A stretch of DNA of 63,697 nt, counting the filler, from Fonticula-like sp. SCN 57-25 (Eukaryota), in the NCBI GenBank assembly GCA_001724245.1. It is 5 parts of 5 records of this genome, joined end to end, with 100 filler letters (N's around TTAATTAATTAA, not from the genome) between each part and the next. Parts side by side here need not be neighbours in the genome. Positions count along the whole stretch, not along the records: positions 26,781 to 39,481 come from MEDX01000688.1; 4 more parts are not named here. One strand, written 5' to 3'. The number at the start of each line of letters is the position of its first letter. Within the stretch, counting starts at the first letter, position 1. This document shows, piece by piece, positions 9,306 through 62,759 of the stretch. Under the pieces are notes generated by a model, which made no database searches, was not told the DNA's origin, and saw only the letters and a list, made by a program, of their open reading frames with translations. A program made the position numbers and the translations under genes.

Positions 9306-9405
9306 NNNNNNNNNNNNNNNNNNNNNNNNNNNNNNNNNNNNNNNNNNNNTTAATTAATTAANNNNNNNNNNNNNNNNNNNNNNNNNNNNNNNNNNNNNNN
9401 NNNNN
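9306..9405. other. Artificial contig linker
   Basis: N-run/TTAATTAATTAA/N-run. Confidence 0.98.
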
Positions 9406-26680: not shown

Positions 26681-26780
26681 NNNNNNNNNNNNNNNNNNNN
26701 NNNNNNNNNNNNNNNNNNNNNNNNTTAATTAATTAANNNNNNNNNNNNNNNNNNNNNNNNNNNNNNNNNNNNNNNNNNNN
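26681..26780. other. Artificial contig linker
   Basis: N-run/TTAATTAATTAA/N-run. Confidence 0.98.
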
Positions 26781-27296
26781 AAATTCGTCGCTCAATAAAA
26801 ACTTGGAGGTGTAGATCGAGCAAAAGTCGGCTTCTTTCCAAGCGCACTTGTTTTCGGCGCATTCTGGTATGTCCATGGGGATGCTTTCCAATTGTCTGCA
26901 CTCTTCTATGAGGTCGCGTGCGGCCAACAAGAATCCCACGTTCTCGCACATCTTCCTGGCGTTGTAATCGTTCACGGCACTCCCTCTGGTCGTCATGCGT
27001 GCACACGATGGCAGGGTTTTTTCGTTGGGTCGCCCGTAGTGTATTATGGCAGAAGTCTGGGTTAGTTTGTTTTTAAACTCATCCCATGTGTTAGTCTTGT
27101 TTGTATTGATCACTGCCAATCGCATGGCCTTTTGTTCCTTGTTGTAAGGTTTGCAATTAGGGTTGGGGTCATCGGGTTGCATGCATAGATAATCGTAAAC
27201 TATGGCCTTTATGTCGTCGCCGGCAAAATAAATCAGCGAATTGCTGGTGATTGCAATGATGAGCACGGAGAGTACGATTCCGGTGATTACTCTCAT
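26781..27296 (-). CDS. Hypothetical N-anchored Cys-rich protein (3' truncated)
   Basis: Hydrophobic N-terminus; several Cys. Confidence 0.7.
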
Positions 27297-27421
27297 TCCT
27301 TAAATGGCTTTTTTGTGCTGACGTCGTTGTACTTTTGTTTTTGCCTTGTGTTTTTGTTTTCTAAAAAAAAACTTTTTTTTTCCACTTTAGTTTACCAACC
27401 AACTGAAACAAAGCACCACAC

Positions 27422-27907
27422 ATGCAAAGATTTTTACGAGCCGTCTTTGGGGAAGAGAAAATGGAGCAAACCCAGCCTACCTTACCAACACTCGTGTGTA
27501 AAAAAGACGAAAAAGAAGATGATCGCACGGAAACGTGGGATCCATGGGATCTCGAATTCGATGTCCGTGGCGACTTTTGGATTAAAGGAGTTAACATGCA
27601 CCACGGAGAGAGTTTGACGGCGCCCTATTATTTCAATCTGACCTTCAACGTAGAAAAACAAGAAGCCTACGATAGGCTGATCAAACTGGGTATGCTCGAC
27701 ATGCCCAAGATTGACAAATTCCGTGGCGATGGATTCATGGTCGCCCACGACGGTGACGTGCGTCGTCTGGCAAATTATCTTGCACAAGCAACCACTTTCC
27801 AAGACAAAAAATACGAGGAAACTCTGGGAGTGTTCACGAGGACCGGCCAGTGCCCGCCTGGATATACGAGAAGTTCTTGCGGTTGCGACTGCAACGAGAA
27901 AAAATGA
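27422..27907 (+). CDS. Hypothetical protein, LAGLIDADG-like repeated-domain family member
   Basis: FDVRGDFWI...GFMVAHDGDVRRLANYLAQATTFQDKKY. Confidence 0.6.
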   Translation: MQRFLRAVFGEEKMEQTQPTLPTLVCKKDEKEDDRTETWDPWDLEFDVRGDFWIKGVNMHHGESLTAPYYFNLTFNVEKQEAYDRLIKLGMLDMPKIDKFRGDGFMVAHDGDVRRLANYLAQATTFQDKKYEETLGVFTRTGQCPPGYTRSSCGCDCNEKK

Positions 27908-27997
27908 AGTTCATATTTTGGCTCGAGTTTTTGAAAAATAAAACCAAATTTGTTCCCAATCATTCTATTATTTACTGCCATTTGTACAAAGCGCACC

Positions 27998-28336
27998 ATG
28001 GAAGGCGACAACGACACGAATATACAAGAGCTCATAAAATCCATAAGAGCATTCAAGCTCATGTTAAAAGAGGAAGCGAATTTATGGGACCATACAAACA
28101 GGTCCAAAACGTCCGAAGAGATTCTCAAGTACGACGTGGGGATGTACGTCTTGCAGATGCACGTCGAGGACAGGAAATTCAAGGCTTGTCTTTCTGCTAT
28201 AGAGCGGTTACAATTGACGGCCAAGGGTATCAACAAATGCTTTCGAAGAAAGGATTCCTTCCAAAAGCGCGACGAGGCCGTCACGTTGTTTAATAGGATA
28301 TGCGATATGATCGAAAGGGCTTGTGATAACGAATAA
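27998..28336 (+). CDS. Hypothetical helical protein
   Basis: ATG in CACCATG context; stop overlaps AATAAA. Confidence 0.6.
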   Translation: MEGDNDTNIQELIKSIRAFKLMLKEEANLWDHTNRSKTSEEILKYDVGMYVLQMHVEDRKFKACLSAIERLQLTAKGINKCFRRKDSFQKRDEAVTLFNRICDMIERACDNE

Positions 28337-28399
28337 ATTGGGTTTTCTATTATATAAATGATCTTGTTTATTTATAAAACACTAGCAAATAAAGGGCGA

Positions 28400-29167
28400 T
28401 TACAATATTTTATAAGCACGAAGTGTGACGCTCACGCGAGGTGCACACTTGGTAGGGTCGGCTGAGTACTTTGGGATTCCGTGGCGGAACTCTTCTTGCG
28501 TCTTGCCTCCCATGCGAATGATTTGACCGTGATAGGTTGGAAGCGCTAGATTGTCAAAGTATCTCAAACTCAATTTCTTTGACGTGTCGCTAGCCGCGCG
28601 ATCGGGTCTGGCAAAACGACCATCGCTAACACCTTCCGTGGTTCCATCACCGTGAAGAATGTGCTCGTCCTTGGAACGTACGAGGAATTGTCGAAGGTTG
28701 CCTTGTTCCATGCTACCTTCGGGACAAAACGTGACGATTACTATGGGGAGAGATTCGACCATTCCTTCCATGTAATCGGCATGCTGTGCAGTGTAGTTAT
28801 TACCGTCTTCGTACCAGTTCAAGGTCACTTCGTTATAATGGCCCCCAGAGGTATGGTTGTTAAAGTGGTCGACTAATTCCTTGAGCAGGTTGGGTATGGG
28901 ATGGGTGCTGCCTTTCGCACAGATTCCATCCGAACCAGAGAACATGTAACTAGGTTCGGTGCCTTTGTAACTCGGGACGACTCCGAAGCTTGCGTGAATG
29001 CGAGGAGATTCTCTAGTAATTCCACCGGTAATGACTTTGGAACCTTTCCATTCGTTTCTTAAGTTCCATAATTCAACCCAACGTTCATCGTATTGCTGAA
29101 GCAATTCTTTCGGGAGAGTCGCTACACTGATCCAAGACAATTCGCTAAGGTTAATGACCGATTCCAT
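28400..29167 (-). CDS. 2OG-Fe(II) dioxygenase, AlkB (ALKBH2/3-like)
   Basis: YN..TLNWY.DG..YTAQHAD, FRHGIPK, RVSVTLR. Confidence 0.9.
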   Translation of the reverse strand: MESVINLSELSWISVATLPKELLQQYDERWVELWNLRNEWKGSKVITGGITRESPRIHASFGVVPSYKGTEPSYMFSGSDGICAKGSTHPIPNLLKELVDHFNNHTSGGHYNEVTLNWYEDGNNYTAQHADYMEGMVESLPIVIVTFCPEGSMEQGNLRQFLVRSKDEHILHGDGTTEGVSDGRFARPDRAASDTSKKLSLRYFDNLALPTYHGQIIRMGGKTQEEFRHGIPKYSADPTKCAPRVSVTLRAYKIL

Positions 29168-29325
29168 GGTTGGTTGATGCGTTGTTTGGTGGTTTGTTTT
29201 GTGAAATAAAACGAACGGGCCGTTTGTTTTTATGGTGTAAGAAAAATAAAATTGATAAATTCTTCCAACCTCTTTTTTTTTCGCGCGTGTGAAAAAAAAA
29301 TAAGTGGTTTATTTACATTGCAATC

Positions 29326-29793
29326 ATGTCAAGACAACCACTCATCGTACCCCAATTCAATCGCTCGAAACTCCTCAAACTTGCCCACACCAACTGGGAT
29401 GACATGGCCAAGGATAGCGAAGGTAACATGATCGACCAGAAGGCGGAGTTTATCACCTACGAAGTTCCCACCCAGACGACGTGGCTCAAAGGTTTCACCT
29501 TGTTTAGACACGGCCATCGTGGTTACCTCAGTATCTACGTAGAAATCAAAGATTGTATCCCTGGTTCCATCGTCAAGCGCAGTTTGAAAATATGGAACGT
29601 CGACGTTAATTTCGAAGACGGTAGCCCCGGATTCTCGGTGTTCTTCAGGAAGGACGTCGGCAACATGGCACGCTTCATCTACGACACGTCCCAATTTACC
29701 GAGACCAAATACAAGAGCCTCTTGGAGAACTTTATCATTTGGGGATCTAGTCCGCAGGAGGTGGACTATACCCCTACACTCACGTGGGTTTGA
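29326..29793 (+). CDS. Hypothetical protein, same repeated-domain family as 27422
   Basis: GFSVFFRKDVGNMARFIYDTSQFTETKYKSLLENF. Confidence 0.6.
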   Translation: MSRQPLIVPQFNRSKLLKLAHTNWDDMAKDSEGNMIDQKAEFITYEVPTQTTWLKGFTLFRHGHRGYLSIYVEIKDCIPGSIVKRSLKIWNVDVNFEDGSPGFSVFFRKDVGNMARFIYDTSQFTETKYKSLLENFIIWGSSPQEVDYTPTLTWV

Positions 29794-29877
29794 AAGGACA
29801 AATAAACCGATTTTTCGATATTCCAAACTTCTTTCAAATTCTTATTCTTCTACCAACTGCTGAACAGTAAACCACAA

Positions 29878-30636
29878 ATGACAGATAACCAAGAGCCAGC
29901 GAACAACGTGGACACCTTCCAAGTATCTCATATACCCAACGAGATATGGTCGTTAGTATTTGACGGCTCTACCACGAGCGAAGAAATGCACCTTGTTTTG
30001 GCCATGACATCCATGGTTTGCAAGGAGTTCAACCAAATCGTCCGTGATTACAAATCCCATTCGACGTTTGTCCCCTACAAATTTGGGTTAAGGGGTGCCG
30101 TAATAAGCTACGGTCATTTGGGATTGTTGTCAATGTGGACAAGTTTGAAAGTTCTTATAACGAGCAAAGATGTAGAATTGGCGATTAGGAGTGGATATTT
30201 GGATTGTCTTCAACATGTTTGGTCCAAGTGGAACTTCTTCCACGAGTGTAGCGCCGTGGAAGGGTTGCTTCTCGAACATAGTTTGGCACGGCTCTCGATT
30301 TTGAGGAATCGCAAAGAGATTTACGAGTTTATCGTCGAACAAGTTGGTTTTAGCGCAAATTACCTTTATTACGCTATAAGTCTTGGACATATAGAATGTA
30401 CAACTTGGATGTTCGAAAAAGCTTTTAAAACATCTACGAAGATAGAATTAAATCGCGTCATGTTAGCTTGTGGCACCAATCGTGAAATAAAACAAGTGTT
30501 CGAGGAATTACACAAAGAACATTTGAAGAGATTACACACGTTTGGGGACAGATCGATGGAACAGGTGCAGAAGTTACGAAGCATGATGTCAGAACACGCG
30601 TTTAATCAAGAGATGCAATCTTTGTCGCAAAAATAA
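29878..30636 (+). CDS. F-box-like plus degenerate ankyrin repeat protein (paralog 1)
   Basis: IPNEIWSLVF..SMVCKEFNQI; AIRSGYLDCLQH; AISLGHIEC. Confidence 0.75.
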   Translation: MTDNQEPANNVDTFQVSHIPNEIWSLVFDGSTTSEEMHLVLAMTSMVCKEFNQIVRDYKSHSTFVPYKFGLRGAVISYGHLGLLSMWTSLKVLITSKDVELAIRSGYLDCLQHVWSKWNFFHECSAVEGLLLEHSLARLSILRNRKEIYEFIVEQVGFSANYLYYAISLGHIECTTWMFEKAFKTSTKIELNRVMLACGTNREIKQVFEELHKEHLKRLHTFGDRSMEQVQKLRSMMSEHAFNQEMQSLSQK

Positions 30637-30723
30637 AGATTTTTCGATTTTCTGGAAATGCTCCACTGTTCGATTTCGCGATATTCTCATTTCGTAAAAA
30701 AGATTCAGAACAGTGAACCACAC

Positions 30724-31467
30724 ATGGAAAACAAACAAGAACTACAGGATACCACAAATACGCTCCAAGCTACCAATGTTCCCGTCGAGATATGGTATAT
30801 GGTATTGGAATCATCAACCAAGGGCTCAAGAATGCACGTCCTTCTGGCCATGATGTCCATGGTCTGTAAGGAATTCAACCAACTCGTTCGATATTACAAA
30901 GCGTGCTCAAAGTTCTTCCCCCACGAGTATGGACTACGTGGCGCCATACTATCGTCCGGCCATTTGGAATTGTTGTCGACGTGGATGAACTTGGGCGTCG
31001 GCATCACGAAAAAAGACGTACGGACGGCAGTTCAAGGCGGATATTTGGACTGTTTTCAATACGTTTGGTCCAAGTGGAAAAATTCGGAAGAGAATAGTAA
31101 CTCGGTAGAAAGAAAATTACAAGAAGTCAGTTTGATGCAATCTTCTATCGTACTAAAGCGCAAAGAGATTTGCGAGTTTTTGGCCCGGAACATCGACTTT
31201 ATCGAGGAATACGTTTATTGCGCTACAGCATTTGGAAGTGTCGAGTGCATGGCCTTTATGTTCGACATGGCTTTGGAAAAGTTGATACCGTTGGATTTCG
31301 AGCGCATTAGATTTAGCTATGGTGCCGATAGCGCAAGAGGGGAAGCCGTCCAGAAATTGCAAGAAGAATACTTGAAAAAATTCAACACACCCGAGCATCA
31401 AGCGAGAATAATGATGCTCCATATACAAAACTATGAAAAGGCGTTGCAAAAGACTGCACAAAAATAA
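30724..31467 (+). CDS. F-box-like plus degenerate ankyrin repeat protein (paralog 2)
   Basis: VPVEIWYMVL..SMVCKEFNQL; AVQGGYLDCFQY; colinear with paralog 1. Confidence 0.75.
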   Translation: MENKQELQDTTNTLQATNVPVEIWYMVLESSTKGSRMHVLLAMMSMVCKEFNQLVRYYKACSKFFPHEYGLRGAILSSGHLELLSTWMNLGVGITKKDVRTAVQGGYLDCFQYVWSKWKNSEENSNSVERKLQEVSLMQSSIVLKRKEICEFLARNIDFIEEYVYCATAFGSVECMAFMFDMALEKLIPLDFERIRFSYGADSARGEAVQKLQEEYLKKFNTPEHQARIMMLHIQNYEKALQKTAQK

Positions 31468-31613
31468 ACGTTTGAATTTTCTGTTTAAGCACGAGCGTCA
31501 TTTTTTATTTTCAGGAAACGCATTTCCAGAAAACGCACCATAAAATAAAATTTTCTTGGTCTATTATTTCATTCATAATCGAACAAAGCAACAACAACAC
31601 AACAGAAACAACA

Positions 31614-32669
31614 ATGGCCGAACCTCAGAAATACACCGATCCCATGGAGCGCGTCTTGTTGACGCTCGATAGCGACACCAGCGGACGCGAAGACTGGATC
31701 ACCCATATAAGTTTTAAACCCTTGACCCCTGGATGGATAAGAGAGTTCACCATCTCACACCGCCAAGGCTACGAAACGAAGATATCCCTGGGAGTAAAAA
31801 AGTATTTGTTCGGACTCGTGAAAGAACGATTAAAATCCGCCAAAATCGTCGCACATGGTCGCGACAATTGGTTCATTACACGCACGGCCAGCCAATCGAA
31901 AAAATTTGCACGATTTTTGCTTCCTTTCTTGGCCTTTGACGACCCAAAGCACCTCGAAATACTCAAGGAGTTTTCGGACTCGTGGAACGAAGAAGAATAT
32001 AACAAGGAAAGCGGGAAGCCCGTATTCATGAACAAAAACTGCGATTGGGACACGGAGGTCATCCACTACGATTCATCCTTGAGGAGAAAAGCGTGTTTCG
32101 AATGCCTCGACAAGTCGTTCTACATCAAAACTATCGACTTTTTATATTACGACGATGACAGAATGGTCATTAATTCCATCGTGAGAAATCAATACAAATT
32201 CCAAGCCGTGGATGTGTTAAAGGCTCTCAATATCGCAGTGAAAATCGAGGGTGGTCCCAAACCCGAAATTAGAGTCGAGAGCATTGAACACGTGAAAAGC
32301 ATGGCAAAATATCTCTCGGAGACGATCATGTTCGAAGAGAAGAAGCACGACACGATACTACACCAGTTTGAAAATTACGAGCCCATCAAGGCGACAAAGA
32401 TACACGAGGTGAAACGCTCGCGCGGTTATGTAGCATCCCCTCCCCCCATTTCCCCTTCTTTATCCTTTCCACAACGTCCTTTCCCCGGACAAGAACCTGG
32501 TTATGCCATAGACAATATTGTTTTGGAATTGATGAAGCAAAAGCTCTTTACGGATATTTTAGAGAGTATGGGCGACATCAAGTTAGACCCCAAGCCAGCC
32601 TCAAAGCCAGATTCAGACTCAGAACCAGATTTGGACTCGGATTCGGATTCGATGGAAGAAGTTGACTAA
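31614..32669 (+). CDS. Two-repeat member of the LAGLIDADG-like family with an acidic DS tail
   Basis: ..KKFARFLLPFLAFDDPKHLEIL and ..HVKSMAKYLSETIMFEEKKHDTIL. Confidence 0.6.
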   Translation: MAEPQKYTDPMERVLLTLDSDTSGREDWITHISFKPLTPGWIREFTISHRQGYETKISLGVKKYLFGLVKERLKSAKIVAHGRDNWFITRTASQSKKFARFLLPFLAFDDPKHLEILKEFSDSWNEEEYNKESGKPVFMNKNCDWDTEVIHYDSSLRRKACFECLDKSFYIKTIDFLYYDDDRMVINSIVRNQYKFQAVDVLKALNIAVKIEGGPKPEIRVESIEHVKSMAKYLSETIMFEEKKHDTILHQFENYEPIKATKIHEVKRSRGYVASPPPISPSLSFPQRPFPGQEPGYAIDNIVLELMKQKLFTDILESMGDIKLDPKPASKPDSDSEPDLDSDSDSMEEVD

Positions 32670-32808
32670 AAAAAATGTGTAACCAGAACTTAACAATAAA
32701 TCCTTTTGCCAATTTTGTAAAGTTTTTTTTTATTTTTTAAGGCTCGAATTTCTCGGTTTTGAAAGAAACCCAAGAATTACACACCGATTGCCTGGATACT
32801 TTTCTTAC

Positions 32809-34728
32809 ATGGCGCGATCGTTCGAAAGCGGTAGCAAATTGTACCGCGGTGGATTATTTATTTTTTTATTGTGCGTGGCGACAGCGACGGCCACCGGATC
32901 TCAACAAGCCCGAGTCGTTCATTGTGATGATATCATCGCAGGTTCCGGTGCAACGGGCGCTTATTTAGCCAGCATGGCCGCAGATTTTCCTCATGCTCGT
33001 ATTTGCGTCATCGAACAAGGCAAAGCCGTCAAGGATTTGACTCTCGTCGCCCCAGTTCCATGGCCTTATAGCGCTCCCGATGCCGTTCGAATGATGCTCG
33101 GCATGTACTTGGTCACCGGAAACTTGCTCAATCAAGTCAAAGAATACCAGACCGTACCGCAATACAACCTCCTCGAAATGGTTCCTTCCACCGATCCCAA
33201 TAACCCTTACCCTACCTTGGTCCCCGGTCGCAGAGTCACCACAGCTTACGCAGAAGGCGCCGTGGGTGGAGGACCCAACGCCAATGCCGCAGGCGACCGT
33301 GTTCCCGCGCGATCGGTCATCGACGACGAGTTCGACATGCCCAACTTTAAATGGCACGAGTGGAAACCGGACTTTGACGCCTTGGTCACCGAGGTCGGTG
33401 TCGCAAAGGTGCCCCTCATCGCTCAATTGGAACCCGAATTGAAGCACAAGGCTCGCGAAGGTTTCATATCCGCCGGCTACTACGCCAACCCCAACATGCG
33501 ACAAGGCAACCTTTTGGGCTCCGACGGAACTTCGTTCTGCGTTAAACCCAAAGACCCCACCAACCCCGTCTTGCTCAACCGTACCAGTTCTGCATTCAGC
33601 TTCGTGGAGAATTACGAGGGTAAATCACCTTTCCCCAACCTTCACGTGTTTACTCGCATGCGCGTGGATCGTGTCCACCTCGAGGGATGGTTCAACCGCG
33701 CCAAGGGTGTGTGGGCTACCGATCTCAACACTGGCGAGCGTGTGTACTTTAAGACTCGCAACGAAGTGTTCCTCTCGACTGGTACTCGCAGTGATGCCAA
33801 GATTTTGGCTGCCAGTGGTATCTACAACCGCACCGTTCTCCAAAAATGGGGCATTCCCGTGCGCGTTAACAACGCCAACGTAGGTCAAAACGTGTGGAGT
33901 CACTTCAACCTCAGAGCCATCATGAAGGTCAACGAATCGATGGTTGCTCAACCCAAGATCCCCGACGTGGAAGTTGGTGCCGCCATCTTCGGTTACGGCC
34001 CCGTCGCCGGTGTCAGCCCGAGCGCCCCCAACCGCTGGGGTATCGGTCTCAGTCAGCTCACCGCTCCAATTTTGCCTCCCTACGAAACAGTAGGTCTCTT
34101 GGAAATGCAAGCTTACGACACAAAATCACGCGGCAGTATCACGTTCACCAACGTGACCGCCCAAGGTGAGACGCTCATCGACTATCGCATGCTGGAGGAT
34201 CCTCGCGACGTGGCCTTGGTTCGTGACTTGGTTATGGAAGCTCAACGAATCCTAAACCAACCCTCCATCAAACAAGCGTACCCCGAAATGCTCCTTCCTA
34301 GCCCACAACAATTCGATCTTTCCAACCCACAACAAGCCGAACTGTTCGCTCGTTTGAGCTTGGGAGCTGCATACCACGACGGTGGATCAGTTCGTATGGG
34401 TCGCATCACCGATAGAAAGCGTGTGGTGGACACTCGAGCCCGCGTCGTCGGAACTTTGGGTCTCCGTGTTGTGAGCAGCGCAGTTTTCCCCGTTCCTTTG
34501 CGCGTCAACATGGCCAGTCCTTGCATGGCCCTCGGTCGCCGTGTTAAACGACTCGTCGTCGAAGAACGCACAGGTCGCCGCTGGAGAAATAGATCCACCG
34601 ATACCGACGGTGACGATGATGCTTATTCCGAATCGACTGAGGAAACCTTCCAACGCTTGTTGGAACTCGACAATGTCGAGACTATGCCCATTCCCGAAAA
34701 TGACTACAATGAACCCTTGGACAATTAG
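32809..34728 (+). CDS. Secreted/anchored GMC-family FAD oxidoreductase
   Basis: N-terminal hydrophobic segment, IIAGSGATG, VGGGPNANA, L.ASGI, VGQNVWSH, YHDGGSVRMG, VVD.RARV.G..GLRVV. Confidence 0.9.
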   Translation: MARSFESGSKLYRGGLFIFLLCVATATATGSQQARVVHCDDIIAGSGATGAYLASMAADFPHARICVIEQGKAVKDLTLVAPVPWPYSAPDAVRMMLGMYLVTGNLLNQVKEYQTVPQYNLLEMVPSTDPNNPYPTLVPGRRVTTAYAEGAVGGGPNANAAGDRVPARSVIDDEFDMPNFKWHEWKPDFDALVTEVGVAKVPLIAQLEPELKHKAREGFISAGYYANPNMRQGNLLGSDGTSFCVKPKDPTNPVLLNRTSSAFSFVENYEGKSPFPNLHVFTRMRVDRVHLEGWFNRAKGVWATDLNTGERVYFKTRNEVFLSTGTRSDAKILAASGIYNRTVLQKWGIPVRVNNANVGQNVWSHFNLRAIMKVNESMVAQPKIPDVEVGAAIFGYGPVAGVSPSAPNRWGIGLSQLTAPILPPYETVGLLEMQAYDTKSRGSITFTNVTAQGETLIDYRMLEDPRDVALVRDLVMEAQRILNQPSIKQAYPEMLLPSPQQFDLSNPQQAELFARLSLGAAYHDGGSVRMGRITDRKRVVDTRARVVGTLGLRVVSSAVFPVPLRVNMASPCMALGRRVKRLVVEERTGRRWRNRSTDTDGDDDAYSESTEETFQRLLELDNVETMPIPENDYNEPLDN

Positions 34729-34794
34729 GCGATTTAATTTAATTGTGGTGTATGTGAAATAGCCCTTTATTTCCAATAAAAATACAGTTCCAAC

Positions 34795-35667
34795 TCAAGT
34801 GTAAAGTCTTTCCACTTCTTTGATCGGTTGTTTACACTCGGGACAGTTGTTGCTTTTCTTCATGTAGTCCACGGAACAGGTAGTGCAAAAGAACGCATGC
34901 CCACAGGGTTTGCACGTCGTTCGCAATCTATCTTGACAGCGACCACAGACCAAGCTTTCGAGCATCTTTTGAGTGGCTTTCTTTTCTTCGGGTTCCTTTT
35001 CCTCCGTCTTTTTCTCTTCTTTCGCGTCCTTGCGTCCTGTAGCCTTGGGCTTTTTTGACGAGGAACTCACCAACTTGCCGTCGACAAACACGTTGTATTG
35101 TGTCTTCTTCTCTTTCTTGCCGTCTTCGTCGTCGTCATCACCATCGTCGTCATCGGGGACAGTGTGCACAACCTTGCTCTTGACGGTCGTCGTTTTGCGC
35201 TTCTTTGGGGGTCTTTCTTCATCGTCATCACTGTCACCGAATACAACAGACCCAGTGTTGACCACGACGCTGCTACGGGATCGTTTCTTGGGAGGAGAGT
35301 CGCCACCACCGCCAAAGTTCATGGTCATGGTGCCTCTGTTGACACCCGTGCCGTTCATAACCACTACGCCAGTGTTTACACCGACGGAATTTTTAGCATT
35401 GATAAAGTGTTGTTGAACGACGCCGCCGGTTACTTGGCCTATGGATCCAGGGCCTACAGCAAAATTGTTGTATATACCTCCACGTACGTATGCGGCGCCC
35501 CCTGGTGCATGGTTCACGTTCACCATGGATACAGACCCCACAGAACCGTTGCCCAATGCGCCAATGGTGCAATTTGATCCTTGAAAGTTGATGGTGGAAC
35601 CAACGTTGTTGAAAACGTTCGTGCTGCTGCTTTTTAGCTTGGTTTTGGATTTTTGGTAGTTGGACAT
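34795..35667 (-). CDS. C-terminal RING finger protein with a G/N/V-rich N-terminus and NLS-like motifs
   Basis: CGRC..PCGHAFFCTTC..CPECKQPI; PPKKRS and PPKKRK. Confidence 0.85.
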   Translation of the reverse strand: MSNYQKSKTKLKSSSTNVFNNVGSTINFQGSNCTIGALGNGSVGSVSMVNVNHAPGGAAYVRGGIYNNFAVGPGSIGQVTGGVVQQHFINAKNSVGVNTGVVVMNGTGVNRGTMTMNFGGGGDSPPKKRSRSSVVVNTGSVVFGDSDDDEERPPKKRKTTTVKSKVVHTVPDDDDGDDDDEDGKKEKKTQYNVFVDGKLVSSSSKKPKATGRKDAKEEKKTEEKEPEEKKATQKMLESLVCGRCQDRLRTTCKPCGHAFFCTTCSVDYMKKSNNCPECKQPIKEVERLYT

Positions 35668-35784
35668 GATGATGATGCGCCTGTTGTGGTATACGTCTCG
35701 TTGTGTTATTCAAATTAACGAAAAAATATACGAGTCTTTGAACAAAAAAACAAATTCTGGAATTACGACAATACGATGGAAGAT

Positions 35785-36584
35785 CTAACAATCTTCTTCC
35801 ATAGTGTCGTATTTATTTTCCAAATATTCGTCTCTAATTTCGGACAAATATTGGCCATCGCAGGTCTTTATGGTAGTCCAGCCATTCGGTTTCTTTCCTC
35901 GTAATTCATTCTGGAACTGCGTAGCGGTCAGCCAAATTATAAACGAATAAAATTTGCGTTTAATACCTCGAAAGTAACCCATGCGGTCGGGTGGATGCTA
36001 TACCCTTTTGTCCCCTCCGTTCCTATGCATCCATTGGCATCTATCTTTGTCTCTATGGTCCTCCCGTAATATCGAGATCTCAGGATGTCTCCAGTATTGA
36101 GTAAACCGTTCTGCACTAATGTTCGTATTGTTATGCCTCTATACATTGCATCCGTTCGATTCCTTTTTTCCATATTGTAGGGTCTCCTAAAAGTGGACAT
36201 ATGTGTTTGGACTTCTCCGGTGTGTTTGTGATCGTGGTCGCTTGACGTTTCCATAATTTCGGATCCGTCATCGCCGTGGTTTGGTATTTCGGTTTCATCG
36301 TCGTTACTGTTATCCGCTTTATATTCGTCACTATAGTGATTTGATATTTCCGGTGACGGGGGTGGTGAATATTCCAATAAAATAGGCTCGGTATTATGAT
36401 GTCTTGCCTCTGATTCCAATTGCTCTACGTACCTGACCAAGCGGTCGTATTTTTGGACTTTTTCTTTTTTATCCCAGGATGATGCTAGAATTTTTAAGTG
36501 GAGGGCCTTTAACGCTTTACATAACTCATGCACGCCTTCTGTGTAAACACGGGTGGCCACTTCATCGCTCGGGTCGATTGACAT
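35785..36584 (-). CDS. RAMA-domain protein, 2 exons (intron 35966-35917)
   Basis: ITIRTLVQNGLL.TGD.L...YYG......I...G.I...PTAW|...PNGWTTI....G..LSEIR. Confidence 0.75.
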
Positions 36585-36766
36585 GATTTGTGGTGTGCGT
36601 CTAAATGTTTTATTTGTAAATAGCACAATTTCAGGTATTCTGTCTCGACCAATTTCCGGTAAGAATTGAAGTTCAAAAAAATTCTGAACGTCAGAATATC
36701 TGAAGTTCGAACATAAAACAACTATTTTTGGTCATTGTTATTCACCAATTTAAACAAACACCACCC

Positions 36767-37021
36767 ATGAGCGCCAAAATGTTTTGCACGACCTGCAACA
36801 GGGTCAAGAAGCACGTCAAATGCTGCGAGTCCATGTGCTTGGACTGGATGTGCACTACGTGCTACATTTACACCAAGTGCACCACCTGCGACCACATTGC
36901 CTGCGAGGTGTGCACGGGATTCATGCGCGCCGACTCCGAAGACGAAGAAGAAGGCATATACGAACCCTTATGCGAAGAATGTTACAGATCTTTCAAAACC
37001 AAAAATAAATACACACGTTAA
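36767..37021 (+). CDS. Small Cys-rich zinc-binding protein
   Basis: Multiple CxxC pairs in 84 aa. Confidence 0.7.
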   Translation: MSAKMFCTTCNRVKKHVKCCESMCLDWMCTTCYIYTKCTTCDHIACEVCTGFMRADSEDEEEGIYEPLCEECYRSFKTKNKYTR

Positions 37022-37043
37022 ATTGAATCCCACCTACATTTTT

Positions 37044-39481
37044 TTATTTACGCATGACAATGACGGTCTCTTTCTTTCCAAAGATTGGGTAAATTTGTTG
37101 GTGGTAAATGTCAATGCTGCTAAATTTACCACTCGCCATCATTTTAGACAGGTACCTGAACAAACCCCTCGTTCCCTCACGCGACAAGTAGTCGTCACAA
37201 ACGTAGAGCGCCTTGTTGTCCGACACTTTTCGTTCGAGAGGTGAAGTTGAGCTCTTGTTCTTCCCGCTAGCATTATTCAACAATTCCAGCGCATTCTTCG
37301 CAGTCGCTTCGTCCACTTTGTCTTCGCGCTTGAGTTTCTCGATCCATTCGTTAGGTTGCAATTTGACTGCCTTTGGTACTTCCGTAGTGTTGCACAAAGT
37401 GATGGGTGGTAAAACGTCTTCCAAGCTTGCCATATTGTTCCAGATGGTCTGTTTGACGTTCGAATCGATTCTGTGGTGAGTGCATAATAATCCGGGTCTG
37501 CTGGAGGTGTCCATCATCACCTCTGTAAGCGAGGGACCCCAGCGTTTCGCTTTGACGTCGACCCAAGTGAGTACACCCAAATTTTTGTCCAATTCGTACA
37601 ACTTTCTGGTGAAAGAGTAAGCGCACTGTCTATAAAATGTGGACAAGTGTCTGTTCTTGTCTTCTCCCGGAATCCAACTCAAAGCAGAAACTCTATAGTT
37701 GGCGCACGATTCCTCGGAGAGTGGTTTTGCAATGTCGGTGTCCACGGTGTTGATCACGTAGTCGAAGAATCTGTCTTCTATTTCTCTTTCCACCACCGAT
37801 TGATCCACGGTCGATTCTGACATGTTGTAATCATAAGTCTTGCTAACCAACATGGGTCTGACGCGTGCGGTACTTTCCACGCACAAGATGGGCAAGTAGC
37901 GATCGAAACGTTTCGATTGAATGTTGGCATGAATAGATCCTATCAGCTCGATCGTCTTGATGTTTTCCTGGCTGCGTTTGGAAGAAGCGACGTTCTCCGT
38001 GTCGAATACGCGCTTAATGTACTCGACCGTCTTATGCCACGGCAAAAAGAGCGAGAACATGTGACAACCGTAGTTGCCCTGTAGATCGGGTTTGCTGTTC
38101 AAAACGTACTCTTCTGCGACGACGGGTCTCTTTTCTTTCATGACCAACTCCCCCTGGTGGAAGTCACCGGCGTCGTACGTTCCGGCAACGATGAGCGTCG
38201 AAAAGTCCACGTAATGAAGGGCGATTGTTTGCAAGCACTGGACCAAGGGATCTTCCCATCCGTAGATGACCTTCTTGCCCTTGAGGGCCTTGTTGTAAAT
38301 AGCGTCCAGCATGGGGAACTCGGCCAGATCCGTTCTCTTGGTGTTCTTGGACACTATGCCGCATTCTATAATGTGCACCACTTCCGAGGTGAGTCTGTCC
38401 ATCCCCTCGCAATCATCGCAACCGGAAAAGTTTAGAATAATGTCCCAATCGATGCTCTCCGTGTAAATGGCTTGTTCCTTGTTCTTGTCAGGGTTCATTT
38501 TGCCTCTCTTCTGGTCGTTCTTGCCTTCTCGGTACTTGTTCTGTGTACCCGAGTCGCGAACGCGCAATCTGAAATCGGGTCTGTACTTGAGGTTGTTTGC
38601 CATCTCGGTGGTGATTTCAGTGTAGACTTCCAACATGGTCAAAAACTTTTGCTTGTCGCGTTGGTCGGACTTCATCTTGAACCAATCTTCCACGGTCGTC
38701 ACGAAGGCTTCTCGCGTTATTCCGTAACGTTCCAATATGATGGAAGCCAACGACTTGATAAAGTTGCTGTGATTCTGGTTGACTTGGGTGGGTCTGGTGC
38801 AGTGCAAGTAGTAGCAAAGGGTAGGCAATTTACCCATGTCCGTCTTGAAGAACGGTAAATGATTCGACAGAAGCGTATAGTGAGCACACCTCAATCTATT
38901 TGCATTCTTGAGGGGCATGTCGTATGCAAACCCCGTCGCGGGGCCACCGTTGGAACTTCCATCCACACTGGGAAACACTCGCATAAACTGTTCCACGTAG
39001 GCGTCCGTGTCCCTTTCCACTTTACGCGAAAAGGATTCGTCGAACGTGTCCTTGACTGGAGTGTAACGAAACGACGAGAACACCTTCTTTTGAGTATTTC
39101 TTTGAGACGCATTCTTCAACGTTGCTTCCAGAGCGTCCAGGGTGATTTCGTCGGAGAGAGAGATTTTGATCGACACTTTGCCTCTGTTGGATGTTTCTTG
39201 GGCTCTTCTCTCTCCCGTGTGTTCAAATTCGTAAAGTTTCTTGTCCAAAATGTCCCTTCCGAACACTGCGACGCCTTCCTTTCGAAGTTGATTTATCACA
39301 TCGAGTAGAGTGACAGAAACGTCACAAAGGTGCGTCTGGTAGAACAATCTATTGTCCTTATCCGCGTCGGTACCCGGTGTGTAGTGTTCCAGCACGTTGA
39401 CGGTAGGGTAAGAGTTTACTTCTCCAGAGAATAAGGTTGATTCGTAGACGGAGAACCAGATCCTGTCTTCGATCGACGGCG
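37044..39481 (-). CDS. Large hypothetical protein, possible transglutaminase/papain-like core (5' truncated)
   Basis: ORF open to the contig end; YRPD...DDCEG...CHMF...CVEST. Confidence 0.6.
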
Positions 39482-39581
39482 NNNNNNNNNNNNNNNNNNN
39501 NNNNNNNNNNNNNNNNNNNNNNNNNTTAATTAATTAANNNNNNNNNNNNNNNNNNNNNNNNNNNNNNNNNNNNNNNNNNNN
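39482..39581. other. Artificial contig linker
   Basis: N-run/TTAATTAATTAA/N-run. Confidence 0.98.
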
Positions 39582-52139: not shown

Positions 52140-52239
52140 NNNNNNNNNNNNNNNNNNNNNNNNNNNNNNNNNNNNNNNNNNNNTTAATTAATTAANNNNN
52201 NNNNNNNNNNNNNNNNNNNNNNNNNNNNNNNNNNNNNNN
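52140..52239. other. Artificial contig linker
   Basis: N-run/TTAATTAATTAA/N-run. Confidence 0.98.
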
Positions 52240-59387: not shown

Positions 59388-60839
59388 TTACGGGCGAGCA
59401 AGGCAAGAGAGGAAGCCTTCGTAGAAAGCGCCCTCATTCCACTCGTACTCGGCGACAAGCGGCGGCATCGCCAGACGGACCACCACAAGCTCCTGATCCG
59501 GGAAAATGTACACGCGCTGGTTACGGAAACCAAGAGCAATGAACAGCTTCGGATCAATGTTGGAGTTGCGCCAAAAATGAGCAGCGTATCCTTCATGGGT
59601 GTGCGTAGCGGTGCTCGAGTAGTCGACCCAGCCCTCCGGGAGAATCCGCTTACCGTCCACCCACACGCCGTCGCGCTGGAACAGAAGACCAAAGCGCGCC
59701 CAGTCGCGCGCCGTGGCGTAGCCGTACGCGCCGCCAAGGAAGTTGCCGTTCGGCTGGTACTCGATGTACATTGAGTGGGCGCCAATGGGGTAGAACAGGC
59801 GCTGCTTGGGCCACTCGTAGTTGGTCCACTGCGGGTCGCCGCGAGTCGACATCACCATGCGCGACAGCAAATACGACGAACCCGAGTTGTAATTCCAAAG
59901 CGTATCAGGCTCCGCTTCGAGGGGCTTGAGACCGCACACGCGGCCGCAGTTGTTGTTGCTAAAGAAGAGACACTCGGTCGTGGGAATAATGTCGCCAACC
60001 CACGTAGTGCCAGAGCTCATGCGAAGCATCATGTCTACCGTAATATTCTGGCGCGGGTCGTTCTCCTCTTCGTACCACTCGGGCACCGGCGCGGGCTCGT
60101 AAATGTCGAGCAGGCCGTCACCGACAACGAGACTGAGCAGCGCCTGCGTGATGCTCTTGGTCGCGCTCCAGCCAATCAGGCGGGTATCCTTGGTGATGCC
60201 AGGCGCATACTCTTCAAACACCAGCTGGCCCTTGTACACGACGGCAATCGCGCGCGCGTTCGGAATCTTTTGCGAAAACTGCACAGCCGAAACGTTGGCC
60301 AAGCAGTCGAGGTCGATGCCCACCGGCGCGTCCTCCGGGAAGAATCCCTCGCCGACCGGCCACGCAACAGTGGGGTCGAGCGGCTCGGGCGGCGTCATGT
60401 CACCAAGATCCTGCGCGCGGACCTCCTCCTCGGTCAGCTCCTCGACGAGCGTGCAGCCAATGCCGTCGCGGAAGATGGAAACGTACGACTGGTTGAGCGG
60501 GTTCTTGTACTTGCACCAAACCTCGACACGGCGGTTATCATAGTCAACTTCATACGTCACGAGGGCGCGCGGCATATACCCGACATCCTCATTCCATGCG
60601 GTCTCCTCCGAAAGCCCGCTTCCAAAGATTGTCGAGCACAACTCCTGCGCGGACCAGCCGCTGCACACCTTGACAAGGTTGTCATCAGGCTCAATGGCGC
60701 CTTCGTCGGCCTGCTTGAGCAAGCGGAAAAGGGGTTCCCACTCGGCGCGCTCCACTGCCTCGGCATCGTTAAATTGAGGCGCTGCCAGCGCGCAGGCCGC
60801 CAGGCCTAGCACCAGCAGGACCAGCCCTCCCCGCATCAT
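59388..60839 (-). CDS. Secreted beta-lactamase-fold serine hydrolase (AmpC/NylB-like), copy 1
   Basis: Signal peptide; WSATKS (SxxK), LRMSSG, WNYNSG, TARDWARFG.L. Confidence 0.9.
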   Translation of the reverse strand: MMRGGLVLLVLGLAACALAAPQFNDAEAVERAEWEPLFRLLKQADEGAIEPDDNLVKVCSGWSAQELCSTIFGSGLSEETAWNEDVGYMPRALVTYEVDYDNRRVEVWCKYKNPLNQSYVSIFRDGIGCTLVEELTEEEVRAQDLGDMTPPEPLDPTVAWPVGEGFFPEDAPVGIDLDCLANVSAVQFSQKIPNARAIAVVYKGQLVFEEYAPGITKDTRLIGWSATKSITQALLSLVVGDGLLDIYEPAPVPEWYEEENDPRQNITVDMMLRMSSGTTWVGDIIPTTECLFFSNNNCGRVCGLKPLEAEPDTLWNYNSGSSYLLSRMVMSTRGDPQWTNYEWPKQRLFYPIGAHSMYIEYQPNGNFLGGAYGYATARDWARFGLLFQRDGVWVDGKRILPEGWVDYSSTATHTHEGYAAHFWRNSNIDPKLFIALGFRNQRVYIFPDQELVVVRLAMPPLVAEYEWNEGAFYEGFLSCLARP

Positions 60840-61187
60840 GTTTGTTTGAGCGCGGATGGGATGCTCGCCTCTGATTGGTCAGATCACTTGAATACCATGA
60901 GACGGTCATGTGTGCATTCACGAATCACGCAGAATGCCCATTCCGGGCGTTCATACCACTCCATATGATACTGGTACAAGTGAATGGCTCCAAGCCGTAT
61001 GTATAGTGCACAAAGGCACCGGGTGATTGTTGACGCTGTACAAACGCAAAAATTGCCCCAAAATAAAGATGTAGAGGCTCATACTGGCATACACAAACTG
61101 GGTCGATGTATTGAAACCTGTCAACTAGAAATAAAATTCACTCTACAAATTACAAAAACTGGGGTCGAAAACACATGCGGCATTCAC

Positions 61188-62633
61188 TCAGCCGCTGAGG
61201 CAGCCGAGCATGCTCTCGAGGAACGGTTCCTCGCGCCAAACGGGGTGGCCGGCGAGCGGCGGCATAGAGAGGCGCACAACGACGAGGTCCTGGTTCGGGA
61301 ACACGTACACCTTTTGGTTGCGGAAACCAGACGCGTAAAAGAGACGATCATCGACGCTCGGCTTGCGCCAGAAATGAGCAGCGTATCCGTCATTGGTGTG
61401 CGTAGCGGTGCTCGAATAGTCGACCCAGCCCTCGGGGAGAATACGGTTGCCGTCAACCCAAACGCCGTCGCGCAGGAAAAGCAGACCAAAGCGAGCCCAG
61501 TCGCGCGCCTTGGCATAGCCATAAGCACCGCCAAGGTAGTTGCCGTTCGGCTGGTACTCGATGTACATCGAGTGGGCGCCGATGGGGTAGAACAGGCGCT
61601 GCTTGGGCCACTCGTAGTTGGTCCACTGAGGGTCGCCGCGGAAGGAATTGGTCATGCGCGAAAGAAGGTACGACGAGCCAGAGTTGTAGTTCCACAGTGT
61701 GTCGGGCTCGGCGACCAGCGGCTTGTTGCCGCACGCGCGGCCGCAGTTGTTGTTGCTGAAAAAGATGCACTCGGTGGTAGGAACAATGTCGCCAACCCAC
61801 TTGGTACCAGAGCTCATGCGCAGCATCATGTCAATTGTGATATTCTGACGCGGGTCGTTCTCTGTCTCATACCACTCGGGCACCGGCGCGGGTTGGTAAA
61901 TGTCGAGCAGACCGTCACCAACGACAAGACTGAGCAGCGCCTGCGTGATGCTCTTGGTCGCGCTCCAGCCGATCAAGCGGTTGTCCTTGGTAATACCCGG
62001 CGCGTACTCTTCAAACACAAGCTGGCCCTTGTAAACGACAAGGATAGCACGCGGGTTCGGGATCCTCTGCGTAAACTGCTCGGCGGAAACGTTGGCGACG
62101 CAGGCAAGGTCGATGCCGGCGGGCGCATCTTCCGGGAAGAATCCCTCGCCGACCGGCCACGGGACCGTCGGATCCAGCGGCTCCGGCGGGGTCATGTCAC
62201 CGAGATCCTGTGCGCGGATCTCTTCCTCGGTCAGCACCTCGACGAGCGTGCAGCCAATGCCGTCACGGAAGATGGAAACATACGACTGGTTGAGCGGGTT
62301 CTGGAAGGCGCACCAGACCTCAACGCGGCGGTTGTCATAGTCAATGTCGTACGTCACCAAGGCGCGAGGAAAATATCCAACGTCCTCCTCCCACGCGAGC
62401 TCCTCCGAGAGCCCGCTTCCAAAGACAGTCGAGCACAACTCCTGGGCGGTCCAGCCGCTGCACACCTTGAGAAGGTCATCGTCCGGCTCCAGCTTTCCTT
62501 CAGCGACAAGTTGCAGCTTCTCCACATAGCCGGCCCATTCCTCATACTCGGCCTCGTCCGACGTCGGAAAGCTCTGCTGCGCGAACGCCGCTGTCGCCAG
62601 CAGCAAAATCGCCGCCACCCCCGCAAACCGCAT
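61188..62633 (-). CDS. Secreted beta-lactamase-fold serine hydrolase, copy 2
   Basis: Same motifs; colinear tandem paralog. Confidence 0.9.
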   Translation of the reverse strand: MRFAGVAAILLLATAAFAQQSFPTSDEAEYEEWAGYVEKLQLVAEGKLEPDDDLLKVCSGWTAQELCSTVFGSGLSEELAWEEDVGYFPRALVTYDIDYDNRRVEVWCAFQNPLNQSYVSIFRDGIGCTLVEVLTEEEIRAQDLGDMTPPEPLDPTVPWPVGEGFFPEDAPAGIDLACVANVSAEQFTQRIPNPRAILVVYKGQLVFEEYAPGITKDNRLIGWSATKSITQALLSLVVGDGLLDIYQPAPVPEWYETENDPRQNITIDMMLRMSSGTKWVGDIVPTTECIFFSNNNCGRACGNKPLVAEPDTLWNYNSGSSYLLSRMTNSFRGDPQWTNYEWPKQRLFYPIGAHSMYIEYQPNGNYLGGAYGYAKARDWARFGLLFLRDGVWVDGNRILPEGWVDYSSTATHTNDGYAAHFWRKPSVDDRLFYASGFRNQKVYVFPNQDLVVVRLSMPPLAGHPVWREEPFLESMLGCLSG

Positions 62634-62759
62634 CTCCGCCGGGGCTCAAAACAAAGTGAACCAGAAGTGAACGCAAAAGATCTACAACTATGTACAATGA
62701 TGTGGCAGTGTTGTGATTCAAGCGATGCGATATCCATATGACAGTGTGCTATTTTGCAG

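Follow-up and report, generated by a model that had tools for sequence, protein, structure and literature searches.

A candidate spliceosomal intron within a RAMA-domain gene on a virus-like contig binned with a Fonticula-like eukaryote

The DNA considered here, called the window, is a stretch of 63,697 nucleotides (filler included) from the metagenome bin Fonticula-like sp. SCN 57-25 (GenBank assembly GCA_001724245.1), in which five contigs of that bin have been joined end to end; it is not a single molecule. The third contig (MEDX01000688.1) is 12,701 nucleotides long and appears virus-like, and its minus strand carries a gene for a protein with a RAMA domain (Pfam PF18755), the coding sequence of which seems to be interrupted within that domain by a short spliceosomal intron. 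The parts of the gene, with the evidence on which each was delimited, are listed here.

35785-36584, minus strand: RAMA-domain gene with a predicted spliced product of about 249 residues (open reading frames, ORFs, and Pfam)
35967-36584, minus strand: exon 1, with 206 whole codons from the ATG at 36584, encoding a helical conserved N-terminus, an acidic linker and the first two thirds of RAMA (ORF, Pfam and alignment with the related protein P0002)
35917-35966, minus strand: candidate phase-0 spliceosomal intron of 50 nucleotides, GTATTA...CTGAC...GCAG (sequence reading)
35927-35931, minus strand: branch-site-like CTGAC with its A at 35928, 12 nucleotides 5' of exon 2
35785-35916, minus strand: exon 2, with 43 codons plus TAG, encoding the last third of RAMA with an NGW motif (Pfam and codon score)

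The interrupted RAMA gene

On the minus strand the splice context reads ...CCGACCGCATGGGTTACTTTCGAG/GTATTAAACG...TTTGGCTGACCGCTACGCAG/TTCCAGAATGAA... (boundaries marked by slashes; junction TTCGAG/.../TTCCAG), and a preliminary description of this DNA, which had placed a 50-nucleotide phase-0 intron at 35966-35917, gave its coordinates and character correctly. The candidate intron runs GTATTA...CTGACCGCTACGCAG and has no other AG after CTGAC, so that GCAG is the first AG past the branch site, and because exon 1 consists of 206 whole codons the intron is in phase 0. Left unspliced, the exon-1 ORF ends at a TAA at 35939-35937, nine codons past the boundary, and the interval holds two stops in the exon-1 frame; the exon-2 frame runs without a stop from 35997 as far as the TAG at 35787-35785. 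The interval has a guanine-plus-cytosine content (GC) of 0.36, versus 0.43 in the exons, and exon 2 has a codon-usage score of +10.8 in the proposed frame, versus −8.6 and −16.3 in the other two. The interval thus combines GT and AG termini, a first-AG acceptor, a nearby CTRAY branch site and the restoration of both frame and domain on its removal, which together characterise a U2-type intron.

Pfam RAMA matched exon 1 at residues 141-202 (profile positions 9-70 of 107; 26.1 bits) and exon 2 at residues 7-35 (profile positions 77-105 of 107; 15.2 bits), two pieces that lie in different frames and are consecutive in the profile; removing the interval joins the two ORFs and completes the domain, as had been claimed. 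The unspliced ORF of 215 residues scored 26.2 bits, no gain over exon 1 alone, and it is to this unspliced call, P0001, that the protein database assigns PF18755. On a local RAMA hidden Markov model (HMM), built from the ten RAMA repeats of P0004 and P0005, the unspliced ORF scored 3.4 bits versus 20.2 bits for the product of the 50-nucleotide splice, in one domain spanning the junction, a result that supports the predicted splicing and does not choose its junction. Exon 2 alone (43 residues) was compared with 1.84 billion protein representatives and gave five matches. The best two, at 44.3 and 43.8 bits, are P0004 and P0005, both bacterial, in each of which RAMA is repeated five times in tandem (Pfam scores of 272 and 317 bits); the others are P0006 (4,114 residues), an SH3-repeat protein and a protein without any family above the Pfam cut-off, these last two being probably chance matches. 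The exon-2 ORF taken over 70 residues yielded no candidate in a collection of 5.8 billion proteins.

A search of 5.8 billion proteins with exon 1 returned only P0001 (the gene itself as the unspliced call, on 7 contigs) and P0002 (188 residues, 48% identity, E-value 2e-50, on 3 contigs), and the novel N-terminal region of the RAMA protein is common to P0002 only. P0002 is collinear with the RAMA protein from the start codon to ...FE at 48-54% identity, and it ends ...HPTGWILFEVG-stop where the RAMA gene has ...HPTAWVTFE/VLNANFIRL-stop. Its ORF breaks two codons past FE, and the first codon past FE is again GTN (V). Protein alignment shows xxFE to be conserved, whereas the read-through residues are not; in P0002 the W is followed by an Ile codon, so that an alternative donor directly after the W (35978) is not conserved. 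The pattern in P0002 is what a prokaryote-style gene caller would make of a conserved intron position. We chose the 50-nucleotide junction because its acceptor follows the first-AG rule and because FE plus GTN is conserved in P0002.

Across the two RAMA ORFs, 64 pairs of GT or GC with AG at 20-300 nucleotides would join the frames. The base rate of more complete signals was estimated from 12,621 windows of 80 nucleotides per strand, scanned for frame-correcting GT..CTRAY..AG with the branch A at 8-22 nucleotides from the acceptor: such signals occur in 0.88% (plus) and 0.71% (minus) of windows in the contig, and with CTGAC specifically in 0.13% (plus) and 0.58% (minus). The whole contig holds six distinct GT..CTRAY..YAG 3' sites, two of which lie inside a gene on the same strand, and in-frame stops are present in the RAMA one only.

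A sequencing indel in the raw reads, which the preliminary description had named as a finding that would overturn its claim, was not seen. Contigs from four runs (X1, X2, X7 and X11, belonging to four studies) span the intron without a listed difference, although run X1 may be the source sample and hence not independent; the listed differences of the run contigs sit at 26814-27308, 37039 and 38490-39372. The 800-nucleotide RAMA gene is also letter-identical in L001 and L002, assemblies that differ from the window elsewhere. Because the gene is invariant across assemblies that carry differences in other places, the break between its frames is not an assembly error or indel.

Comparison with introns of the co-binned eukaryote

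The preliminary description had matched the intron in size and branch site to those of a 'host'. What it called the host is a set of co-binned contigs and not flanking DNA: the window is five separate contigs held together by four artificial linkers, each of 100 nucleotides (44 N, TTAATTAATTAA, 44 N).

9306-9405, no strand: artificial linker (sequence reading)
26681-26780, no strand: artificial linker between contigs, with no biological adjacency
39482-39581, no strand: artificial linker between contigs
52140-52239, no strand: artificial linker (sequence reading)

Any inference from adjacency across these linkers is void, and since they separate the contigs, the virus-like contig is tied to the eukaryotic contigs by their shared bin only. 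The other four contigs (1-26680 and 39582-63697) have a GC of 0.56-0.57 and, in ORF-by-ORF Pfam searches, eukaryotic genes that include eIF3c (470 bits), a DEAD-box helicase and transporters. Rfam and transfer RNA scans of the whole window gave no match.

Chaining of ORFs in the four eukaryotic contigs, demanding only GT..AG and a branch motif, yielded introns of 45-60 nucleotides, with donors GTACGC, GTGCGC, GTACGT or GTTCGT in seven of the seven best cases. The pattern GT[AGT]CG[CT]..CTRAY..AG occurs 36 times in the 50.6 kb of these contigs, versus about 16 expected from Markov shuffles, and has no match in the virus-like contig. Downstream of the 209 GTRCGY sites, CTRAY is enriched solely at 25-39 nucleotides (30 observed versus about 7.6 expected), and the excess of GT upstream of CTRAY..YAG is all GTNCGN (37 versus 5.75 at control offsets). 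A crude length histogram of GT..CTRAY..AG in the same contigs shows a weak peak, which becomes clear once the donor class is known. The 36 eukaryotic matches and the RAMA intron compare as follows.

Length: eukaryotic matches, median 50.5 nucleotides; RAMA intron, 50 nucleotides
Distance of branch A: eukaryotic matches, 9-21 nucleotides; RAMA intron, 12 nucleotides
Branch motif: CTGAC in 14 of 36 eukaryotic matches; RAMA intron, CTGAC
Acceptor: CAG in 17 of 36 eukaryotic matches; RAMA intron, CAG
Donor: eukaryotic contigs, GTNCGN; RAMA intron, GTATTA, a mismatch

The RAMA intron fits the eukaryotic introns on four counts (size, branch motif, branch distance and acceptor) and fails on the donor; the earlier claim of a match in size and branch site holds. 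Many protists and fungi have short introns with CTRAY branch sites; the fit is therefore compatible with the co-binned eukaryote as host and is not proof of it, and the link remains weak. Such a comparison is nevertheless a cheap test of virus-host pairing, and its mixed result here calls for caution about the bin.

The eukaryotic contigs yielded some observations of their own. Their donors are near-invariant GTNCGN (GTACGC 13, GTGCGC 7, GTACGT 5), an unusual consensus which implies that the eukaryote of the bin has an atypical 5' splice-site rule. The DEAD-box helicase gene contains a 50-nucleotide intron-like interval (25992-25943, minus strand) with a CACTGAC branch and a TTAG acceptor. The conserved PTRELA motif of the helicase is restored only with the donor GGGCGCC (GG for GT), which points to a donor outside the canon or else to a mistake in the assembly. 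A DDE_1 transposase-like ORF (8061-9305, plus strand) runs off the end of contig 1, and contig 5 holds two tandem genes of the beta-lactamase family (serine hydrolases; 59391-60878 and 61191-62645, minus strand).

Gene content and context of the virus-like contig

The contig with the RAMA gene has a GC of 0.46, ten points under the co-binned eukaryotic contigs, and its proteins found no match in the other four contigs by tblastn. The features that bear on its nature are these.

26781-39481, no strand: virus-like contig whose 13 ORFs, for the most part orphans, are packed tightly on both strands (ORFs and Pfam)
34795-35667, minus strand: RING protein of 290 residues with a C-terminal RING finger (zf-C3HC4_3, 32 bits), downstream of the RAMA gene (Pfam)
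29878-30636 and 30658-31467, plus strand: tandem paralogues with a weak F-box and a DUF3447/ankyrin-like region (44% identity over 222 residues, E-value 1e-67)

Intergenic DNA amounts to 1,210 nucleotides of the 12.7 kb, and there is about one gene per kb. Pfam families score above cut-off in 4 of the 13 ORFs (an AlkB-type 2OG-Fe(II) oxygenase, a GMC oxidoreductase, the RING protein and, weakly, an F-box/DUF3447-like protein); a G-alpha match stays under the gathering score of its family. The Atlas clusters closest to the F-box-like pair consist of ankyrin-repeat proteins from Chlorophyta and Nucleocytoviricota, no more than a lead. An 811-residue protein has a single relative, P0003 (45% identity), among the 5.8 billion proteins searched, with no Pfam family, no PDB sequence match at E-value ≤ 1 and no usable Atlas match; its AlphaFold model (mean predicted local distance difference test, pLDDT, 32.9) is too poor for fold comparison. 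From this gene density, orphan content, duplicated F-box/ankyrin-like genes and distinct composition, we infer that the contig is probably virus-like. It occurs in runs from bioreactor and wastewater metagenomes.

Signals suggestive of eukaryotic expression surround the genes. AATAAA lies within −18 to +51 of the stop in 11 of the 12 assessable genes, and 14 of its 29 copies fall in the 1,210 nucleotides of intergenic DNA. The preliminary description had invoked AATAAA signals and motifs resembling a nuclear localisation signal (NLS) as agreeing with transcription of the element in the nucleus, and both are real; the RAMA gene itself, however, is the sole exception among the 12, and the NLS-like motifs (PPKKRS and PPKKRK) sit in the neighbouring RING protein. 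An endogenised element had also been considered, but no virus-host junction was found within the contig, whose flanks are artificial linkers, nor any GC step inside it.

A 36,415-nucleotide contig of run X2 contains this contig and reaches 23.3 kb beyond it at one end and 0.45 kb at the other. All 26 base differences from this longer contig cluster at the contig ends (26814-27308 and 38490-39372), and the central 11 kb or so is identical to it save for a 1-nucleotide deletion at 37039. Depth in run X1 is 18.1 over the central piece and 2.4-8 at the ends; the end-clustered differences and the depth suggest co-existing strains with an identical core. At 35119-35155, loose ends of unrelated contigs pile up on a GAT/GAC-rich acidic stretch of the RING gene, which is low-complexity cross-matching and not a junction.

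Several further features were recorded along the contig. Three ORFs (27422-27907, 29326-29793 and 31614-32669) share a weak C-terminal motif (E-value 0.002-0.01). The GMC oxidoreductase gene (32809-34728, plus strand), with a signal-peptide-like N-terminus, has a GC of 0.54-0.56 inside a contig of 0.41-0.46 and may be a recent acquisition. We tried its product as a lineage marker and set it aside: the best PDB matches, bacterial choline oxidases at 69.5 bits (mimivirus R135 reached 27.7 bits), are uninformative on lineage. Inspection by eye of the intergenic segments 29794-29877, 30637-30657, 31468-31613, 35668-35784 and 36585-36763 picked out TTC/GAA-type half-palindromes (TTCCAGAA, TTCTGGAA, TTCAGAA and TTTCGAT), and long A/T runs (AAAAAAA/TTTTTTT) number 17 in intergenic DNA versus 1 in coding DNA; the element may use such motifs as promoters or terminators.

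Interpretation and relation to known systems

The explanation that we favour, with a probability of about 0.65, is that this is a spliced RAMA gene of a nucleus-dependent large DNA virus or virus-derived element; that the intron is real, at whatever junction and in whatever context, is very probable. The RAMA coding sequence would be interrupted within RAMA by one 50-nucleotide phase-0 U2-type GT-AG intron (35966-35917), and the primary transcript would be spliced by the host spliceosome, that is, in the nucleus. Without splicing, the product would end nine codons later and lack the last third of RAMA, whereas the predicted protein of about 249 residues would carry a RAMA domain that is complete only after splicing. 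Splicing, the AATAAA motifs and the NLS-like neighbour would together suggest nuclear expression. The contig would form part of a large DNA virus or virus-derived element of at least 36 kb, and DNA binding, possibly as a reader of N6-methyladenine (6mA), is the likeliest function of the RAMA protein, by inference only.

A number of findings weigh against this explanation. In the donor, GTATTA, the G expected at +5 is missing, and in the eukaryotic contigs donors other than GTNCGN show no excess (55 versus 59.5 in the control), GTATTA occurring there 0 times. Scored separately, each RAMA piece falls below the Pfam gathering cut-off of 35.2 bits, and the spliced loop is about four residues longer than the Pfam profile. 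On the local HMM other in-frame junctions score 16.4-27.2 bits, the highest being 35978 to 35911. P0002 has no Pfam family at E-value ≤ 0.01, and conservation of the intron in it is visible solely as a truncated ORF. An in-phase slippery heptamer, A AAT TTT (35955-35949), lies within the ORF overlap. As to the virus that had been proposed, Pfam found no hallmark gene (capsid, packaging ATPase, polymerase/primase or transcription factors) in the 13 ORFs of the 12.7 kb, and no relative of the contig turned up in four IMG/VR scans, among them scans with the 811-residue protein, the GMC oxidoreductase and the AlkB-like protein. The DNA behind P0002 was absent from the viral and genome contigs searched, and among metagenome contigs the search returned just the element itself (L001 and L002). 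None of the 14 listed runs is an RNA run.

Of the rival accounts, one is that the intron is real and the contig non-viral, either a gene-dense, intron-poor cellular stretch of another bioreactor eukaryote or a non-viral mobile element. The missing hallmark genes and IMG/VR relatives would then cause no surprise, AATAAA and an NLS-bearing RING protein would be ordinary eukaryotic features, and a donor unlike that of the co-binned eukaryote may stem from another organism. We think this unlikely. The virus-like contig has about one gene per kb and one intron in 12.7 kb, whereas the eukaryotic contigs show no fewer than 36 intron-like sites over their 50.6 kb; most ORFs of the virus-like contig are family-less, and two searched proteins have a single relative each among 5.8 billion. 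Giant viruses typically carry tandem F-box/ankyrin-like duplicates and weak families of paralogues, and the element is near-identical in samples of four studies dated 2015-2025. The gene might instead be a frameshifted pseudogene in a decaying (endogenised) element, with GT..CTGAC..AG a coincidence. Two ORFs in different frames are what an indel mutation of 1 or 2 nucleotides would leave, and the weak donor and the want of RNA runs suit this account as well. It is distinctly unlikely, however, since such signals would stand at the break by chance in about 1% of cases, the interval is AT-richer than the exons, and exon 2 retains an open frame, the best codon score and a conserved RAMA end; the break in the P0002 ORF falls on that same residue, the remaining ORFs of the contig are intact, and the gene does not vary among six assemblies.

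Two further accounts concern how the frames are joined. A real intron could use another junction, either 56 nucleotides to the CCAG at 35911 or, from a donor at 35978, 62 or 68 nucleotides. All of these are in frame with the same branch site, they score 21.9, 23.3 and 27.2 bits on the local HMM versus 20.2, and the 62-nucleotide version equals the Pfam loop length. We regard them as improbable, because the AG at 35917 is the first past the branch site and because P0002 conserves xxFE in its protein, together with FE plus GTN, and not a donor after the W. A programmed −1 ribosomal frameshift at A AAT TTT would add 17 residues in the RAMA loop; the heptamer has the form X XXY YYZ in the correct phase, and the −1 frame is the exon-2 frame. 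Against this highly improbable route, the 89 nucleotides downstream form no stimulatory structure (minimum free energy −11.8 kcal/mol, z-score +0.81; 160 of 200 shuffles fold as well), the P0002 ORF stops so soon after FE that almost no overlap is left, the read-through residues are not conserved, and a hydrophobic insert of 17 residues is absent from the RAMA profile.

Should the RAMA gene be spliced, as the favoured explanation has it, the element would need a nucleus for some, if not all, of its expression. Genes of this sort are cut short by prokaryote-style gene callers: for this protein the database lists the unspliced ORF of 215 residues, and P0002 is cut at the same place. A bolder version, which we consider doubtful, makes the contig an undescribed lineage of nucleus-dependent large DNA virus of wastewater protists, with the intron at the same codon in relatives diverged by about 50% and with its length, branch motif and acceptor tuned to the CTRAY introns of about 50 nucleotides of the co-binned eukaryote. 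If that were true, intron architecture would serve as a marker for host assignment, and the odd donor would gauge how widely a virus may stray from the unusual GTNCGN rule of its host.

RAMA has been defined in association with adenine-methylase restriction systems and predicted to discriminate N6-methyladenine in DNA, and the same source places it, besides certain nucleocytoplasmic large DNA viruses, in eukaryotes predicted to carry the modified base, m6A (PMC4738411). Like RAMA proteins described there, the product of the RAMA gene would have a C-terminal RAMA module; it differs as a stand-alone small protein without fusion to a JAB peptidase, methylase or nuclease, and with a longer junction loop.

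Among viruses with introns, pandoraviruses have spliceosomal introns validated in 7.5-13% of genes, and chloroviruses are mentioned too, in the relevant passages of PMC5995976. As described there, pandoraviruses resemble the RAMA contig in having short GT-AG introns in a minority of genes, at a density far below that of host genes. Their introns are validated by RNA sequencing in isolates with known hosts, whereas the RAMA contig is known from DNA sequence alone, has a GC of 0.46, one intron in 13 ORFs and no hallmark gene, and gave no sign of kinship in IMG/VR scans. For mirusviruses, PMC12768974 reports, in the portion drawn on here, 37,703 predicted introns with a length peak near 80 bp, concentrated in virion-module genes, and a predicted CTGAC branch consensus in the order Styxvirales (18.1% of introns); nuclear reproduction is inferred there from introns and missing machinery. 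Mirusviruses, as portrayed there, are large DNA viruses known from environmental genomes, and their introns are canonical GT-AG ones, like the candidate in the RAMA contig. The RAMA intron is 50 nucleotides and not about 80, and the HK97 capsid module was unseen by Pfam in the 12.7 kb.

Giant endogenous viral elements (GEVEs) of Chlamydomonas carry 25-72 predicted introns, and the part of PMC9693826 that deals with them leaves open whether these are viral or were gained after endogenisation. On that account they are virus-derived, gene-dense regions with few spliceosomal introns, which the RAMA contig resembles; they have host flanks and host-like GC, whereas the RAMA contig has a GC of 0.46 versus 0.56-0.57 in the co-binned contigs and no flank or junction. 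If spliced, the RAMA gene would group its element with pandoraviruses, some chloroviruses, mirusviruses and endogenous giant viruses, and not with purely cytoplasmic giant viruses. Set beside these systems, the intron is one more case of a known kind, calling for no new mechanism, in a lineage without described relatives.

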